64,000 bases of DNA from the NCBI GenBank assembly GCA_024236095.1, contig JACKLD010000012.1, forward strand, positions 345,219-409,218. The letters run 5' to 3'. Of this stretch, positions 36,913 to 61,178 are shown piece after piece. The position numbers and the translations under genes were made by a program. The DNA comes from Pseudomonadaceae bacterium (GTDB lineage: Bacteria; Pseudomonadota; Alphaproteobacteria; UBA2136; UBA6156). The stretch's first letter is position 1. Every line of letters begins with the position of its first letter. The notes under the pieces were generated by a model. It was given only the letters and a program-made list of their open reading frames with translations. It had not been told where the DNA came from and did not search any database.

Positions 36913-36988
36913 GGGCCTATAGCTCAGTTGGTAGAGCGCGTCGTTCGCAATGACGAGGTCAGCGGTTCGAATCCGCTTAGGTCCACCA
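36913..36988 (+). tRNA. tRNA-Ala (anticodon CGC)
   Basis: Acceptor GGGCCTA/TAGGTCC gives the G3:U70 alanine identity pair. Anticodon arm CGTCG-TTCGCAA-TGACG, T arm AGCGG-TTCGAAT-CCGCT, encoded CCA. Confidence 0.9.
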
Positions 36989-36996
36989 GTTTATTT
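36970..36996 (+). repeat. Left direct repeat (attL core): last 19 nt of tRNA-Ala plus 8 nt downstream
   Basis: aatccgcttaggtccaccagtttattt is identical to 61152-61178. Confidence 0.9.
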
Positions 36997-37275: not shown

Positions 37276-37482
37276 ATGCCGAAGAAGAAACCCGTAAATC
37301 CCCTCCAATCTCCCGCCGAGCGTCTGGCCGCCGTGGCCGAGTTGCTGGCCCTGGGAATCGTGCGATTGGCTGCCCGAAACGATGCCTCTCGAGAGAGAAA
37401 GAAAGCTGGACTTCCGCGGGCTTTGAAGCGTTCCTCCACATCAGAAAAACCCTTGAAAGGAAAGGAGAAATGCCATGGCTAG
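37276..37482 (+). CDS. Possible small basic protein (68 aa) preceding the DUF2924 gene
   Basis: MPKKKPVNPLQSPAERLAAVAELLALGIVRLAARN... aggagg lies upstream. The stop overlaps the next ATG by 8 nt. Confidence 0.35.
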   Translation: MPKKKPVNPLQSPAERLAAVAELLALGIVRLAARNDASRERKKAGLPRALKRSSTSEKPLKGKEKCHG

Positions 37483-37918
37483 TCTGGCTCTCCAGATTGC
37501 CCGATTGCCTGACCACAGCATGTCTGACCTGCGCTTGGTATGGCAGGAGGTGTTTGGCTTTCCATGCCCCCATGGCAACAACCGGATGTACATGATGCGC
37601 CGGATTGCCCATGCCTGGCAGGTGAAACGGTATGGTGGCCTGAGCGAGTTGGACCTCAAGCGGCTGGCGGCGTATGTCGATGAAACCAGCCGCAAGACCA
37701 AAGGTGAGCATAAAGTGGTACGCCCCTTGCCGGGAACAGTAATTGTACGCCGCTGGCATGAGGTGGAGCATCAGGTGATGGTGTTGCGCAGCGGGTTTGA
37801 GTATCGGAACGTCCGCTACAACAGCCTCACCGAGATTGCCCGCGTGATTACAGGCACCCACCAGTCTGGCCCCCTGTTCTTTGGCCTCAGCCGTTCCAGC
37901 AAGGCGCGGCGCTCATGA
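37475..37918 (+). CDS. DUF2924-family protein (usual partner of large serine recombinases)
   Basis: LRLVWQEVFGFPCP...RMYMMRRIAHAWQVKRYGGLS...PGTVIVRRWHEVEHQVMVLRSGFEYRNVRYNSLTEIARVITGTHQSGPLFFGL matches my recollection of DUF2924. Its stop overlaps the recombinase start. Confidence 0.7.
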   Translation: MASLALQIARLPDHSMSDLRLVWQEVFGFPCPHGNNRMYMMRRIAHAWQVKRYGGLSELDLKRLAAYVDETSRKTKGEHKVVRPLPGTVIVRRWHEVEHQVMVLRSGFEYRNVRYNSLTEIARVITGTHQSGPLFFGLSRSSKARRS

Positions 37919-39381
37919 AGCTAGCCCAGGCCAATTCTCCCTATCTCAAACCCAAGGTGCGCTGTGCGGTTTATACCCGCAAATCCACTGACGAAGGGTT
38001 GGCCATGGAGTACAACTCACTTGATGCCCAACGGGATGCGGCGGAGGCGTACATCCGGTCCCAGCTGCATGAAGGATGGGTTTTGGTGCCCGAGCGCTAT
38101 GACGACCCTGCCTATTCCGGTGGGACCATGGATCGTCCCGCCCTCCAGCGGCTGATGACCGATATCAAAGCCGGTCGGGTGCAGATGGTGGTGGTTTACA
38201 AGATTGACCGCCTGTCGCGCTCGCTGATGGATTTTGCCACCCTGGCACGGATGTTTGAGGAGCATGGGGCCAGCTTTGCCTCGGTGACCGAACAGTTCAG
38301 CACCGCCAATGCCATTGGTCGGCTGCACCTCAACATGATTCTGAGTTTTGCCCAATTCGAGCGGGAACTTGCAGGCGAACGCATCCGCGACAAGTTTTCC
38401 GCCTCCAAAAAGAAGGGGATGTGGATGGGGGGCTATCCTCCCCTGGGGTACGATGTGGCCAACCGCCACCTGCTGGTCAACACCCCTGAAGCTGAAACGG
38501 TGCGGTGGATCTTCCAGCGGTTTCTGGAACTGCGTTCATACCGTGAATTGGCCCGAGAATTAAACGCTGCAGGCCATCTCAGCAAGCTACTTGTTACCCA
38601 GCAGGGCAAACGCCGCGGGGGAAATCCGTTTACCCCGATGGCGGTCCACGCCATCCTTCGCAACCCCATTTACATTGGCAAAATCAATGATCATGGCACT
38701 CTCTATGATGGGTTGCACGAAGCCATCATCTCCACCGATGTGTGGGAACGGGTCCAGAAATCCATCAAGGCATCGCGTTTCAAAGGGCGGACGCCTGGAA
38801 AAACCTCCAGCATCTTAAGGGGTATGGTCCATTGTGCCTGCTGTAAATCGTCGATGGCGCATACGTTCACCCGCAAGAAGGATGGGCGTTTGTACCGCTA
38901 TTTCACTTGCAGCACAATGCGGCGACGTGTCGATCGGCATTGCTCCATGCCTACGGTTTCAGCGGACGAGCTGGAAAAGACCGTCTTGACGCAACTGCAA
39001 AATCTCCTCCGTCAACCGCGGGTCATCACGCAGGTTTGGGAGAGCCTTCAGGGTATAGGGCATGCGTTCTCGGAAGAGGATGTTCGTCGCCAATTGGGCA
39101 ACATGGCAGCGGTGTGGGACGAGCTATTTCCATTGGAGCAACGCAATCTCATTCAAATGTTGGTCCGTCGCGTGGAGATGTCTCCTCAGGGGGCGGACAT
39201 CCACATGCACATAGATCGGATTGGAGAACTGATGGTGGAGAACAATCCCAAGGAGGAAATGTCTGATGAAGTCAACAAACGAAATGCCCAACCCCGTGAT
39301 ACACGTGCCCATGCGATACCAGCGCACCGGCGGGCGGATCATGGTGCTGGCTCCGCACGCGGATACGGACAGCCTCGATGA
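37915..39381 (+). CDS. Large serine recombinase (resolvase catalytic domain + recombinase domain + zinc ribbon)
   Basis: VRCAVYTRKSTDEGL...NSLDAQR, VVVYKIDRLSRSLMDF, FAQFERELAGERIRDK and CxxC...C...C (CACCKS...CSTMRRRVDRHC). Confidence 0.9.
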   Translation: MKLAQANSPYLKPKVRCAVYTRKSTDEGLAMEYNSLDAQRDAAEAYIRSQLHEGWVLVPERYDDPAYSGGTMDRPALQRLMTDIKAGRVQMVVVYKIDRLSRSLMDFATLARMFEEHGASFASVTEQFSTANAIGRLHLNMILSFAQFERELAGERIRDKFSASKKKGMWMGGYPPLGYDVANRHLLVNTPEAETVRWIFQRFLELRSYRELARELNAAGHLSKLLVTQQGKRRGGNPFTPMAVHAILRNPIYIGKINDHGTLYDGLHEAIISTDVWERVQKSIKASRFKGRTPGKTSSILRGMVHCACCKSSMAHTFTRKKDGRLYRYFTCSTMRRRVDRHCSMPTVSADELEKTVLTQLQNLLRQPRVITQVWESLQGIGHAFSEEDVRRQLGNMAAVWDELFPLEQRNLIQMLVRRVEMSPQGADIHMHIDRIGELMVENNPKEEMSDEVNKRNAQPRDTRAHAIPAHRRADHGAGSARGYGQPR

Positions 39382-39690: not shown

Positions 39691-39704
39691 TTGATGTAGG
39701 TCAA
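39691..39704. promoter_or_regulatory. FNR/NnrR-type box upstream of nnrS
   Basis: TTGATgtagGTCAA matches TTGAT-N4-ATCAA at 9 of 10 half-site positions. Confidence 0.6.
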
Positions 39705-43710: not shown

Positions 43711-43724
43711 TTGATGTATCTCAA
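43711..43724. promoter_or_regulatory. FNR-type box upstream of nrdD
   Basis: TTGATgtatCTCAA. The centre is 78.5 nt upstream of the nrdD ATG, and an AGGAG Shine-Dalgarno is present. Confidence 0.6.
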
Positions 43725-43805: not shown

Positions 43806-44810
43806 TTACTGCAGGTTTTTCAGCTCCCGCATAAACGTTGCCATATTAGAAGCATCATGAATGTGCCCCATGTGCTGGCTGATAGAACCAAGCTGTTCAG
43901 TCAATCCAGCTTTATGCTGTTCTGGGTCAGAAAGTAATAGGGTTGAAATATCGTTGGTTGCCCCATTTAAGGCCGCAACCTGTTCCCGAATCGTGATGGT
44001 TGACTGTGCGGTTCGGCTAGAAAGCTGTTTGACCTCGCCGGTTACAACGGCAAAACCTTGTCCAGCTTCTCCTGCGCGGGCTGACTCAATAGCCGCATTC
44101 AGGGCAAGCAGGTTGGTTTGGCTTGCAATCGAACCGATAAGCTGAACAACCTCACCAATGGTTTTTCCAGCGCTGACGGCAGCCTGGATGCTTTTTTGAG
44201 CCACTTCGGCGTTATCGGAAATAGCTTGGGTTTCGCGTTTGGTTTCATTGGCGTGACTGACCATTTCAACGGCTGTCTTTTGGAGCATATCGATAGCGCT
44301 TGCCATTTCAGTACTGACGTCACGCAAAGTGTTTTCAAGTGTTATGGCCACAGCGGTAAAACTACTGATACGATTGGCCACAGCATCTGTTGCTTTGTTG
44401 ATAATATGGGCGCTACGAGCTACATCGCCATGCAGTCCGTGGGGCAGAATGCGCCTGAAGTAGCGGCTCTGGCTAATGTAGGCCATGCTGGCCGAGGCTT
44501 CCCGGACAAACGCGTCAATATGGTCGGTGTGGTTGTTGACGGCCTGTACTAGCGCAAACAATTCAGGGTGCTCGGGTCTGCGTGTAACACGCTGTTCAAA
44601 TTCGCCCTGCGAGATCAGACGACACTCATGAATAATTTGTCTCATATAGTGATCTTCCGAGTATCCAGCTAACCGTAGGAAAACATCGTTTGCATACGTG
44701 ATATGCCCTTTAAGATCGGTTTTCGTGACGATAATTTCATCCGCAGTAAAGGGACGGGCAATACCGGTCAAGGTTAGTTTTTCGTCGCGGCGGGGGGTAC
44801 GTCGAGCCAT
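43806..44810 (-). CDS. Soluble methyl-accepting chemotaxis-like signalling protein with an N-terminal PAS remnant
   Basis: The highly conserved MCP hairpin is [44 protein letters not shown]. The N-terminus [27 protein letters not shown] resembles the first strands of an Aer-type PAS domain. There is no hydrophobic segment. The ATG lies 1 nt after the narI stop. Confidence 0.8.
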
Positions 44811-44811
44811 T

Positions 44812-45546
44812 TTAACCTCTCTTACGAACCAATTGATAACGACGCAGCACATAGCCTAAGGGCAATGCGACCACATGGATAAGCCGTGTGAAAGGAGTGA
44901 TGAGAATAAGGGTGAGCCCTAGCACAATATGAACCTTGAAAATTAGAGCTTCAGGCTGAACATACGCAGCCGCATTGGGTTGCAAGAATACGATGCTTTG
45001 TGCCCAGTTGGCCAAAGCTAGCATGCTGGAGCCATCGGGGTGTTGAGCTGACACAGGAATGGTTCCTAACCCCAGCAGAAGCTGTGCGAGCAGCATGACC
45101 AACAGTGCTATATCGGCAAAGCTGGAGGTACGCCGTACATGAGGGTGATTGGTGCGGCGGGTCAGCAGAATGATAAGACCAATGAGGCATAGCGCCCCAA
45201 AAAAACCACCCACAACCATGGCAATCAGTTGTTTAAGCTGAGCCGAAAGACCAAACGCTGTATAAAGCCAATGGGGGGTAAGCAAGCCCACAAAGTGCCC
45301 GCCCAAAATGGCCAAAATACCAATATGGAAGAGATTAATACCGATAAGGAACGTTCGGTCGTATCCCAAAAACTGGCTAGATTTACTGCGCACGGTAAAG
45401 GGTTCGCGGTCGAGCCGTAACAGGCAACCCACCACGCACACTACGGCGGCAATGTAGGGGTAAACCTGAAACAGCACCCAATGCAGGGCATCGGGGGTGG
45501 GTAACGTGGTCAGGGTGTGGGGATCAACCATGGTGTGGCTCCTCAA
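44812..45546 (-). CDS. narI: Respiratory nitrate reductase gamma subunit (cytochrome b)
   Basis: [36 protein letters not shown] and five hydrophobic helices. The start is possibly at Met6. Confidence 0.92.
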
Positions 45547-54500: not shown

Positions 54501-54514
54501 TTGAGGCAGATCAA
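54501..54514. promoter_or_regulatory. FNR-type box in the divergent narK1 / moeB promoter region
   Basis: TTGAGgcagATCAA. The centre is 40.5 nt from the narK1 ATG and 41.5 nt from the moeB ATG. Confidence 0.6.
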
Positions 54515-58749: not shown

Positions 58750-58763
58750 TTGATCTGTATCAA
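58750..58763. promoter_or_regulatory. Perfect FNR box in the divergent moaB-operon / hemN promoter region
   Basis: TTGATctgtATCAA. The centre is 39.5 nt from the hemN ATG at 58796. Confidence 0.7.
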
Positions 58764-58795: not shown

Positions 58796-60163
58796 ATGGA
58801 ATTCAAAGACCAGCACCAAAGTACCCTTGTTGAAAAATATGATCGGCCCGTGCCGCGTTATACGAGCTATCCAACAGCGGCACAGTTTCAGGATAACATC
58901 TCACCTAACATCGTCGATTCATGGCTGAAAAGCCTTTATCCAGAACAATCACTCTCTCTCTACGTTCATTTGCCATTTTGTCCGTCTTTATGTTCTTACT
59001 GTGGCTGCAATATGCGCGTCACCCACAGCCAAAGCCTGATGCAAGGGTATTTGGCTGCCTTGCGGGATGAAATCACCATGGTGATGGCCAAATTGCCAGC
59101 ACGCATGGCCGTTTCAACCTTACACTTGGGTGGAGGTACGCCAACCTATTATGCGGCTGAAGATTTGTCATCTCTCTTTAAATTTATCGGTCAATACGTC
59201 GTTTTTACCCCAGGTGCAGAAATCTCGTTGGAAGTTGATCCACGTCGGTTCACGCGCACGCAAGCCGCTCACCTTAAAAAAGCCGGCGTCAATCGGGTCA
59301 GCCTAGGCGTTCAGGATACCAACTCCCATGTTCAAAAAGCGATTGGGCGTAATCAGACGCTGGAACAAACAGTACAAGCTTTTCAGATGTTGCATGACGA
59401 AGGCATTGAGGCCATCAACACTGACCTCATTTATGGGTTACCCCTGCAAACTCCAGAATCTATCGCTCAGACAGCCTGCGACGTTGCCAATCTTCGCCCA
59501 TCACGCCTTGCGTTGTATGGTTATGCCCATGTGCCGTGGATGAAGCGCCATCAAAGATTACTCGAACCGCATGGCTTGCCCGATGGCCCAGAGCGTATGG
59601 CACTTTTCATGGCGGCACGTGAAGTCTTTATTCAAAATGGCTATATTCCGGTGGGGATAGACCATTTTGCCTTACCAGACGATCCTTTGGTTTTGGCCGC
59701 CGCGAGAGGCGAACTGCATCGCAACTTTATGGGCTACACGACAGATACAGCCAAAACGCTTCTGGGATTTGGCGTATCTGCCATCAGTTCATACCCGCAG
59801 GGATACGTTCAAAACACGACATCTATTAAAGATTATCTGCATCAGGTACGCCAAAAAGCTCTCCCCATATGGAAAGGTTTACAGCTAACTGAACTTGATA
59901 AATGTTCCGCTGAAATCATTGAGAAACTTCTTTGCCAATTTCAAGTTGATATTGCCGAGGTGGCAGGCATGCACAGCCTACAGCCCTCTCATATCAAAGT
60001 TCATACCCTTAATCTTCATCAAATGATGTCGGACGGCCTTGTGGTGGGGGATACAGAGGATAAAATCATCATCACCGAGCGTGGCAAACCGTTTGCCCGC
60101 ATTGTTGCCTCCTGTTTCGATGGCTATTTACGCCAAAGCGAACTGCGTCATTCACGGCTATAG
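58796..60163 (+). CDS. hemN: Oxygen-independent coproporphyrinogen III oxidase (radical SAM)
   Basis: KYDRPVPRYTSYPTA and LYVHLPFCPSLCSYCGCN (CxxxCxxC). About 455 aa from the ATG at 58796. Confidence 0.92.
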   Translation: MEFKDQHQSTLVEKYDRPVPRYTSYPTAAQFQDNISPNIVDSWLKSLYPEQSLSLYVHLPFCPSLCSYCGCNMRVTHSQSLMQGYLAALRDEITMVMAKLPARMAVSTLHLGGGTPTYYAAEDLSSLFKFIGQYVVFTPGAEISLEVDPRRFTRTQAAHLKKAGVNRVSLGVQDTNSHVQKAIGRNQTLEQTVQAFQMLHDEGIEAINTDLIYGLPLQTPESIAQTACDVANLRPSRLALYGYAHVPWMKRHQRLLEPHGLPDGPERMALFMAAREVFIQNGYIPVGIDHFALPDDPLVLAAARGELHRNFMGYTTDTAKTLLGFGVSAISSYPQGYVQNTTSIKDYLHQVRQKALPIWKGLQLTELDKCSAEIIEKLLCQFQVDIAEVAGMHSLQPSHIKVHTLNLHQMMSDGLVVGDTEDKIIITERGKPFARIVASCFDGYLRQSELRHSRL

Positions 60164-60925
60164 GCCAAACATCCGGCAACGCACCTTATCTCGATCTTTG
60201 CATTTATGCGCATGTACAGGGTCGCAATTAGGACATAGTACGTCCTTGTTATCCAGCTTCACGTGTTTGCCTTTGACATGAATACCCCGTTCAGCCAGAA
60301 CTTTGAGGCAACGGGAGAATGTTTCGGGCGTCAGTCCTAAATGGTTGGCGATTTCAGCCTTTTCATAAGGGAGAGAAAACTCTTGGCGCGGGGCATGGCT
60401 CTCGAGCATAACCCTCAATAAAAAATGAGCCACCCGCTCGACAGCAGGGTGGATGGTGACCAATTCCAGCTGGTACATCATCTCATTTGTTCGCTCGGCC
60501 AAAACACCCATAATATTGATGGCAAACTGAGGGATCTTAGCAATGCAGTCTTTAAGCTGGCTGGATGTGAGTGCCAGCATCGTGACATCCGATTCAGTTT
60601 GTGCCGAGACAGGCGATGGTTTGCCATAAAAAACAACATTCTCTAGAATACTTTCACCTGGCCCTAAGAGACGGGTAATGATTTCCTCACCTTCCTCAGT
60701 ACACCGAAATACCTTAATCCGGCCATCAAGGATAATAAATACTCCAGGCGGTTGATCTCCCTGGTTAATAATCCGCATCCCGCGCTCAAACTTACGGAGA
60801 ATCCCAGTTCCAGCAATCTGGCTAGCCTGCTCCGGGCTCAAATCATAAAAAAGGCGGCTCTTTAGTAAGGAAGCAGAGAGCTTGGGGTCCGTGATAAGTT
60901 TATGAAGAATCGAATTTGTAGCCAT
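60158..60925 (-). CDS. Crp/Fnr-family transcriptional regulator with C-terminal Cys-rich tail
   Basis: cNMP-binding-like fold (GDQPPGVFIILDGRIKVF) and HTH with the FNR-type recognition helix ETFSR. The tail is CPNCDPVHAHKCKDRDKVRC. There is no N-terminal Cys cluster. Confidence 0.85.
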   Translation of the reverse strand: MATNSILHKLITDPKLSASLLKSRLFYDLSPEQASQIAGTGILRKFERGMRIINQGDQPPGVFIILDGRIKVFRCTEEGEEIITRLLGPGESILENVVFYGKPSPVSAQTESDVTMLALTSSQLKDCIAKIPQFAINIMGVLAERTNEMMYQLELVTIHPAVERVAHFLLRVMLESHAPRQEFSLPYEKAEIANHLGLTPETFSRCLKVLAERGIHVKGKHVKLDNKDVLCPNCDPVHAHKCKDRDKVRCRMFGL

Positions 60926-61151: not shown

Positions 61152-61178
61152 AATCCGCTTAGGTCCACCAGTTTATTT
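61152..61178 (+). repeat. Right direct repeat (attR core)
   Basis: aatccgcttaggtccaccagtttattt is identical to 36970-36996. There is no tRNA homology upstream of it. Confidence 0.9.

Follow-up and report, generated by a model that had tools for sequence, protein, structure and literature searches.

A Crp/Fnr-family regulator with a conserved four-cysteine C-terminal tail, carried with nitrate-respiration genes on an alphaproteobacterial island

The regulator and its cysteine tail

We analysed a stretch of 64,000 nucleotides (called the window below) of the alphaproteobacterial assembly GCA_024236095.1 (contig JACKLD010000012.1), and in particular a gene on its reverse strand that encodes a Crp/Fnr-family regulator with a group of cysteines at the C-terminus. 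The open reading frame at 60158-60925 starts with ATG and specifies 255 amino acids. The gene and the two parts of its product that matter most here are the following:

60158..60925, reverse strand: gene for a Crp/Fnr-family regulator of the cysteine-tailed subfamily, named tail-A below (open reading frame, Pfam, AlphaFold2, Foldseek)
60299..60355, reverse strand: helix-turn-helix with the FNR-type recognition helix TPETFSRCLK (translation)
60176..60238, reverse strand: codons L230 to C250 of the tail, LCPNCDPVHAHKCKDRDKVRC, a proposed Cys4 metal site (translation, conservation and predicted local distance difference test, pLDDT)

The protein matched the Pfam families cNMP_binding (PF00027) at residues 44-129 (7e-18) and HTH_Crp_2 (PF13545) at residues 163-230 (2.8e-14). 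Its AlphaFold2 model, computed from an alignment of short tail-bearing relatives, had a mean pLDDT of 94.3, and the Foldseek comparison with the PDB gave template-modelling (TM) scores of 0.76-0.79 (normalised to the query) and 0.84-0.89 (normalised to the target) to GlxR, MtbCRP and FNR. The protein belongs to the Crp/Fnr superfamily, with a beta-barrel, a dimerisation helix and a winged helix-turn-helix. Its recognition helix, EIANHLGLTPETFSRCLKV, is of the ETFSR type, and the matching position of E. coli FNR reads VETISR; the Pfam matches and the translation thus agree with an earlier reading made from the letters alone (the sequence-only reading), which had described a Crp/Fnr protein with an FNR-type ETFSR helix.

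Cysteines are found at residues 75, 127, 206, 231, 234, 242 and 250, and the first 74 residues are free of them. The N-terminal cluster motif is therefore absent, as the sequence-only reading had stated (its numbering of the tail cysteines as 231, 234, 242 and 250 was also exact), and we rejected the assignment of the regulator as an E. coli-type FNR on the basis of such a cluster. The FNR proteins of E. coli and Aliivibrio share with the regulator the fold (TM 0.79-0.87), the E--SR helix and the TTGAT-N4-ATCAA box; however, E. coli FNR has the cluster motif of C20, C23, C29 and C122 and no C-terminal extension, and the regulator is built the other way round. The best curated NCBIfam model, FtrB (NF006901 / PRK09392), gave 105 bits at a cut-off of 211, with an alignment that ended before the tail, and the Fnr model gave 57 bits at a cut-off of 228; the models for FNR, FixK, FnrL and CRP all scored far below that for FtrB. 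Since every model stayed under its cut-off, the regulator was not accepted as an equivalog of FtrB, FNR, FixK or CRP.

A subfamily defined by its tail

The tail follows directly after the winged helix and has the pattern L-C-x2-C-D-x6-C-x7-C. Homologues were collected by searching 1.84 billion cluster representatives exhaustively, and 103 of the 170 proteins in hand at the time of the count matched this motif as a regular expression, 71 of the 103 with the exact spacing C-x2-C-x7-C-x7-C (2/7/7). The sequence-only reading had made its proposal depend on conservation of the tail in homologues, and conservation is what this count indicates. In an alignment of 62 short tail-bearing proteins L230, C231, C242 and C250 were invariant, while C234 and D235 were kept in at least 90%. 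As the mean column identity of that alignment was only 31%, the tail pattern goes beyond what would be expected by chance. All 12 close homologues (36-76% identity) kept four cysteines, including two (P0009 and P0010) that had dropped Cys2 but gained a cysteine nearby, and over homologues of about 25-75% identity the motif was invariant or nearly so.

In the AlphaFold2 model, the tail (residues 231-255) had block-mean pLDDT values of about 88-93 though it was mostly coil. Foldseek aligned only about 225 residues to entries of the PDB, among which no solved structure with such a tail was found. When the PDB was searched with the family profile, two Ruegeria Crp proteins and Pseudomonas aeruginosa DNR (3dkw, 8e-49) ranked above FNR (1e-31), and the matches always ended near residue 225-230.

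Many members are larger than the regulator of the window: 38 of the 103 tail-bearing proteins exceeded 310 amino acids, mostly reaching about 500-530, and an N-terminal nitrate/nitrite-sensing (NIT) domain (PF08376) was present in all five long proteins that were scanned. The window regulator has no NIT domain. Outside tail-A, the NIT domain is known from one-component sensors such as NasR, where it is linked with an RNA-binding domain of the ANTAR type, according to an entry in the reference list of PMC8199190. In one database protein (P0066) a tail-A regulator is fused to a fragment of MoaC, probably because neighbouring molybdenum-cofactor and regulator genes were merged in gene calling. 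No description of the tail motif or of a fusion between NIT and Crp turned up in the literature search, in which the spacing CX2CX7CX7C led to just two papers, one on a plant B-box and the other on a leech peptide. The reviews consulted were silent on NIT-Crp fusions and on cysteines at the C-terminus, and the papers on HcpR/HcpR2 contained no description of C-terminal cysteines. RedB (PMC9603854) was set aside as a family member, because no cysteine is mentioned for it. Judged from these comparisons, tail-A is a large, conserved and uncharacterised Crp/Fnr subfamily, mostly alphaproteobacterial.

Two phylogenetic trees were built on core columns with the tail columns excluded, so that the tail does not drive the grouping. 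The tail-bearing proteins grouped together in the FastTree tree of 185 rows (support 89), and in the IQ-TREE tree of 66 rows they formed one clade, with a value of 99 in the Shimodaira-Hasegawa-like approximate likelihood ratio test (SH-aLRT), in which the window regulator and the NIT-fused forms were nested. Comparison with other Crp/Fnr subfamilies had been suggested in the sequence-only reading, and tail-A stood apart from those that were included. The NarR proteins of Paracoccus pantotrophus, Tistrella, Thioclava and Methylovirgula formed a separate clade (SH-aLRT 100), and NnrR-like proteins and E. coli FNR also fell outside tail-A. In a polytomy with tail-A we found two groups that have cysteines of their own near the end: an FtrB-like type ending F-C-D...P-C, and a C-x2-C-x5-C type ending Y-[ST]-C-[ST]-A-C-S-x-x-F-P-C, the latter in its own clade apart from tail-A.

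In Bacillus Fnr a [4Fe-4S] cluster is located on an extension at the C-terminus (PMC3520743; PMC12937710), the ligands being C-x2-C-x4-C and Asp141 (PMC3520743). Given this ligand set, the C-x2-C-x5-C group is the Bacillus-like one and tail-A represents a third arrangement; the tree holds no true Bacillus Fnr sequence, and the likeness of that group is judged by motif. A plasmid-encoded Crp protein of B. cereus (H7), tried as a stand-in for Bacillus Fnr, was rejected as it has no cysteine tail. The Fnr proteins of B. subtilis and B. cereus resemble the window regulator in several respects: they belong to the same superfamily without an N-terminal cluster motif, their cysteine-rich extension comes directly after the winged-helix domain and begins with CxxC, and their target genes, like the apparent ones here, serve anaerobic metabolism and nitrate respiration. 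They differ in having three tail cysteines complemented by Asp141 of the central helix, whereas the regulator has four tail cysteines at 2/7/7 and a conserved Asp after Cys2. The spacing is thus indeed unlike that of Bacillus Fnr, as the sequence-only reading had noticed. Its idea of a distinct solution held insofar as tail-A has a third cysteine arrangement and a clade of its own; it is not a one-off, however, and belongs to a large subfamily that includes NIT-fused forms. The proteobacterial context is less odd than had been assumed, since Bacillus-like C-x2-C-x5-C tails occur in Alphaproteobacteria as well.

Among regulators of nitrate respiration, NarR of P. pantotrophus and P. denitrificans is thought to activate nar (Wood et al. 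2001, as cited in PMC8139620 and PMC4771820). Like tail-A members, it is a Crp/Fnr protein encoded beside narK-narGHJI and without the N-terminal FNR cysteines; unlike them, NarR and its orthologues in Tistrella, Thioclava and Methylovirgula have no cysteine tail, and they carry an E-[SN]-L-S-R helix. With only 22% identity between P. pantotrophus NarR and the window regulator, a separate clade and no tail, orthology with NarR was rejected. Two matches on Paracoccus plasmids (H4 and H30), considered as NarR, proved to be NnrR-type genes adjoining nnrS/nor. The regulon of P. aeruginosa DNR and of NnrR overlaps that of the island described below (nar, hemN, nrdD, nnrS), but these proteins end at the winged helix and sense nitric oxide (NO) via haem, whereas the window regulator has the cysteine tail.

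The island, its FNR-type boxes and related loci

The regulator gene is the last gene inside a 24.2-kb integrative island (36970-61178) at a tRNA-Ala gene, with a G+C content of 52% in comparison to 61% in the flanking DNA. The cargo consists of nnrS, nrdDG, a chemoreceptor gene, narGHJI, two narK genes, moeB, mobA, moaE, moeA, a moaB-like gene, hemN and the regulator gene, which lies 5.6 kb from narK1. Eight of the nine FNR-type boxes of the window (at most one mismatch to TTGAT-N4-ATCAA) fall in the island, where about 0.5 would be expected (1.3 for the whole window). The 1.29-Mb assembly contains 53 such boxes, and the eight in the 24-kb island correspond to an enrichment of about 8-fold. 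The intergenic ones precede nnrS, nrdD, narK1/moeB and moaB/hemN:

58750..58763, no strand assigned: TTGATCTGTATCAA, a perfect FNR-type box in the gap that separates the moaB-like/moeA/moaE/mobA genes from hemN
54501..54514, no strand assigned: FNR-type box with one mismatch, between narK1 and moeB
43711..43724, no strand assigned: FNR-type box with one mismatch, upstream of nrdD-nrdG
39691..39704, no strand assigned: FNR-type box with one mismatch, at the head of nnrS

The centre of the box at 43711 lies 78.5 bp from the start codon, and the distance is the same for the box of the moaB-like gene. That the regulator recognises FNR-type boxes, as a Crp/Fnr activator, and that it travels with genes of anaerobic nitrate respiration are both well supported by these sequence comparisons, and it very probably controls these genes.

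In the assembly, which is 90% complete, only two proteins with a Crp-type helix-turn-helix exceeded the Pfam cut-off, and both belong to tail-A. The second one, a chromosomal paralogue (L001:1024-1791 on contig C15 of this genome, G000; also listed as P0024), has 255 amino acids, is encoded in high-G+C DNA and is 35-40% identical to the regulator. Its tail, ALCHACDPSHARKCPDHGTAQC, ends C-x2-C-x7-C-x7-C. The gene lies away from nar genes and adjoins a gene like those for UDP-sugar dehydrogenases. There are only two perfect boxes in the genome, that at 58750 in the island and one on the chromosome (L116:2620-2633; G000 C12:5119), between divergent ompW and a second hemN gene. Both hemN and ompW are classic anaerobic targets, and the box between them suggests a small chromosomal anaerobic regulon. 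Since the paralogue has an identical ETFSR helix, the boxes are not assignable to the island copy alone. Control of the whole island, which the sequence-only reading had raised as a possibility, is therefore compatible with the box enrichment, but it cannot be credited to this copy on the strength of the boxes.

Related loci were drawn from a scan of 185,579 species genomes. They came mainly from Alphaproteobacteria, namely Micavibrio-like metagenome-assembled genomes (MAGs), Puniceispirillaceae and Hyphomicrobium zavarzinii ATCC 27496 (68% identity), and a few records were labelled Gammaproteobacteria, Cardiobacteriaceae or Pseudomonadales. At most of the 38 loci the regulator gene and narK (either a single fused gene or a pair, with narG next) diverge, and moeA converges with the regulator gene. 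A perfect TTGAT-N4-ATCAA box was present in the narK/regulator intergenic region of 26 of the 39 loci scanned and a box with one mismatch in six more; further boxes lay before narG and beyond moeA. H. zavarzinii has the gene order of the window in mirror image (regulator, hemN, moaB, moeA, moaE, mobA, moeB, narK1), and the island segment from the regulator gene to narK1 is syntenic with it in the part that is readable there, with boxes likewise at the hemN/moaB and moeB/narK1 junctions. Three NIT-fused members were found within clusters of the order narG-narK-(hemN)-regulator-moaB-moeA-moaE-mobA, and G270, a MAG assigned to the order to which the genome of the window belongs, has hemN-regulator-nrdG-nrdD.

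The number of Crp/Fnr proteins per genome varied. Five Micavibrio-like genomes (G001-G005; L090, L092-L095) encode three to five Crp-type regulators each, which together cover the tail-A, C-x2-C-x5-C and FtrB-like types; those that were read have PETFSR or PETLSR helices, and none of them has the N-terminal cluster motif. In another genome (G159, 99% complete) the sole Crp/Fnr protein found was a tail-A member, and in G270 (97% complete) it was a tail-A variant with His for Cys2. No Crp/Fnr protein was found in two congeners of G270.

The remaining features of the island are:

36970..36996, forward strand: left copy of an exact 27-bp direct repeat over the 3' end of tRNA-Ala, island boundary
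61152..61178, forward strand: right copy of the exact 27-bp direct repeat, island boundary
37915..39381, forward strand: large serine recombinase (Pfam Resolvase, Recombinase, Zn_ribbon_recom)
37475-37918: DUF2924 gene, which precedes the recombinase gene
43806-44852: gene for a methyl-accepting chemotaxis protein, between nrdD and narI

The chemoreceptor could serve in aerotaxis or nitrate-taxis and be carried along with the cassette; a relative adjoins nrdD in G270 as well. At the other end of the island, hemN (forward strand) and the regulator gene (reverse strand) converge with a 6-nt overlap at 60158-60163, where their stop codons share the palindrome CTATAG, an arrangement that leaves no space for terminators. 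The GC skew is negative to an unusual degree (-0.18 to -0.31 in 4-kb windows) over positions 1-36000, the high-G+C chromosomal part, and about zero in the island.

The tail as a candidate sensor

We propose that the regulator would act as a dimeric transcription activator of the Crp/Fnr type, the ETFSR helix of which would bind TTGAT-N4-ATCAA boxes and in this way switch on narK-narGHJI, the molybdenum-cofactor genes, hemN, nrdDG and nnrS. The four cysteines of the tail would make up a metal site, the likeliest occupant being an iron-sulphur (Fe-S) cluster labile to oxygen or NO, so that DNA binding or activation would depend on anoxia. The arrangement would be analogous to the C-terminal [4Fe-4S] site of Bacillus Fnr, but with all four ligands in the tail. 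Four ligands at fixed positions, compensating substitutions and the confident packing of the tail in the AlphaFold2 model point to a metal site; that the centre is of the Fe-S kind and the signal is oxygen is suggested with less assurance than metal binding itself. Taken as a whole, an anaerobic activator sensing through an Fe-S cluster in its tail seems to us about as apt to be right as wrong. An Fe-S cluster is favoured over structural zinc, at a likelihood close to even, because there is a C-terminal Fe-S precedent at the same position in the family (Bacillus Fnr), and because no other Crp/Fnr-type oxygen sensor was found in the genome. Moreover, neither a kinase nor a second regulator was seen among the annotated island genes, and a portable cassette would thus need a regulator that senses directly. 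The fused forms are in line with this reading too, since a NIT domain would provide the nitrate input and the core could serve for some other one.

Several observations weigh against this proposal. No known Fe-S motif has the spacing 2/7/7. The sole match of the tail profile in the PDB was the B-box1 zinc finger of MID1, with LCxFCD aligned, and it was non-significant (E = 5.2), while in Pfam the profile gave weak zinc-ribbon matches, none of them at the cut-off. Many relatives add a fifth cysteine and a histidine, which results in a zinc-ribbon-like CxxC...CxxC(-x2-H) pattern, and some members have His in place of Cys2. The regulon would also fit an NO sensor of the DNR type, DNR being one of the nearest relatives with a solved structure. 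In the Micavibrio-like genomes, the C-x2-C-x5-C regulator could be the oxygen sensor, leaving tail-A with a NarR-like role. Finally, Sphingopyxis granuli TFA has a gene called 'ftrB' and described as 'similar to NarR', divergent from narU and with Fnr sites upstream, together with two canonical FNRs (PMC7713065); this 'ftrB' may be a tail-A member.

The zinc-like features among these could be explained if the tail formed a Zn(Cys)4 knuckle with a structural role, similar to a zinc ribbon or a B-box, that stabilises the DNA-binding domain or the dimer. Any signal would then be read elsewhere: for instance, the beta-barrel could respond to haem/NO, as it does in DNR and NnrR, or the input could come through transcription of the gene for the regulator, as with FixK. 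The B-box1 and zinc-ribbon matches of the profile, the C-x2-C...C-x2-C(-x2-H) patterns and Cys-to-His swaps of relatives, the position of DNR and the two Ruegeria Crp proteins as closest solved sequences, and a box at nnrS, a typical NO-regulon gene, are all in line with it. However, the smallest invariant set consists of C1, C3 and C4 together with C2 and does not amount to a pair of CxxC knuckles; in the window regulator a second knuckle is missing. That no other Crp/Fnr-type oxygen sensor was found in the genome also argues against a structural zinc tail. Of the NO producers, neither nirK nor nirS was found in the genome (90% complete), which lowers the likelihood of a sensor dedicated to NO, and the known C-terminal cysteine extension of the family, that of Bacillus Fnr, holds an Fe-S cluster (PMC3520743). 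We consider structural zinc rather unlikely, and still the most serious of the alternatives.

Alternatively, the regulator may be a functional analogue of NarR, a nar activator responsive to nitrate/nitrite or to nitrosative stress, in which the tail, with or without a cluster, senses nitrogen oxides and not oxygen. The position divergent from narK-narG is shared with NarR of Paracoccus, Tistrella, Thioclava and Methylovirgula, the separate C-x2-C-x5-C regulator of Micavibrio-like genomes is a possible oxygen sensor, and the ftrB-like gene of S. granuli, a possible tail-A member, lies beside narU with Fnr sites ahead (PMC7713065). Nevertheless, the tail-less NarR proteins are distant in sequence and in the tree, boxes also precede the general anaerobic genes nrdDG, hemN and ompW, and, to judge by the many members fused to NIT, nitrate is not read by the unfused core on its own. 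On balance this explanation appears improbable. Thiol-disulfide switches are known in the superfamily from CprK, Lactobacillus FLP and FixK2, and four closely spaced cysteines could pair into two disulfides; but strictly conserved ligands at fixed spacing, the adjacent Asp and compensating Cys/His replacements are typical of a metal site, and the tail is folded compactly and with high confidence by AlphaFold2, so that a metal-free thiol switch is very improbable.

Extending the proposal of an Fe-S cluster, and more tentatively than for the cluster itself, we suggest that the tail may be a new all-cysteine C-terminal [4Fe-4S] (or [2Fe-2S]) module. The subfamily would then be the stand-alone oxygen switch of small-genome Alphaproteobacteria without a canonical FNR, portable together with a self-contained island cassette of nar, molybdenum-cofactor, hemN and nrdDG genes. 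If nitrate is what the NIT domain of the fused forms detects, the rest of the protein would be left to respond to a different signal, and a single polypeptide might compute 'nitrate AND anoxia'.

How nitrate respiration is switched in Alphaproteobacteria without NarXL, and here also without a canonical FNR, is poorly understood, and the same holds for the sensing mechanism of NarR. Tail-A offers a concrete candidate that can be purified, with a cultured source in H. zavarzinii ATCC 27496, where the 68% identical orthologue lies in a syntenic cluster. In the island, the regulator and its probable regulon move as a single unit, which matters for predicting nitrate respiration in uncultured bacteria.

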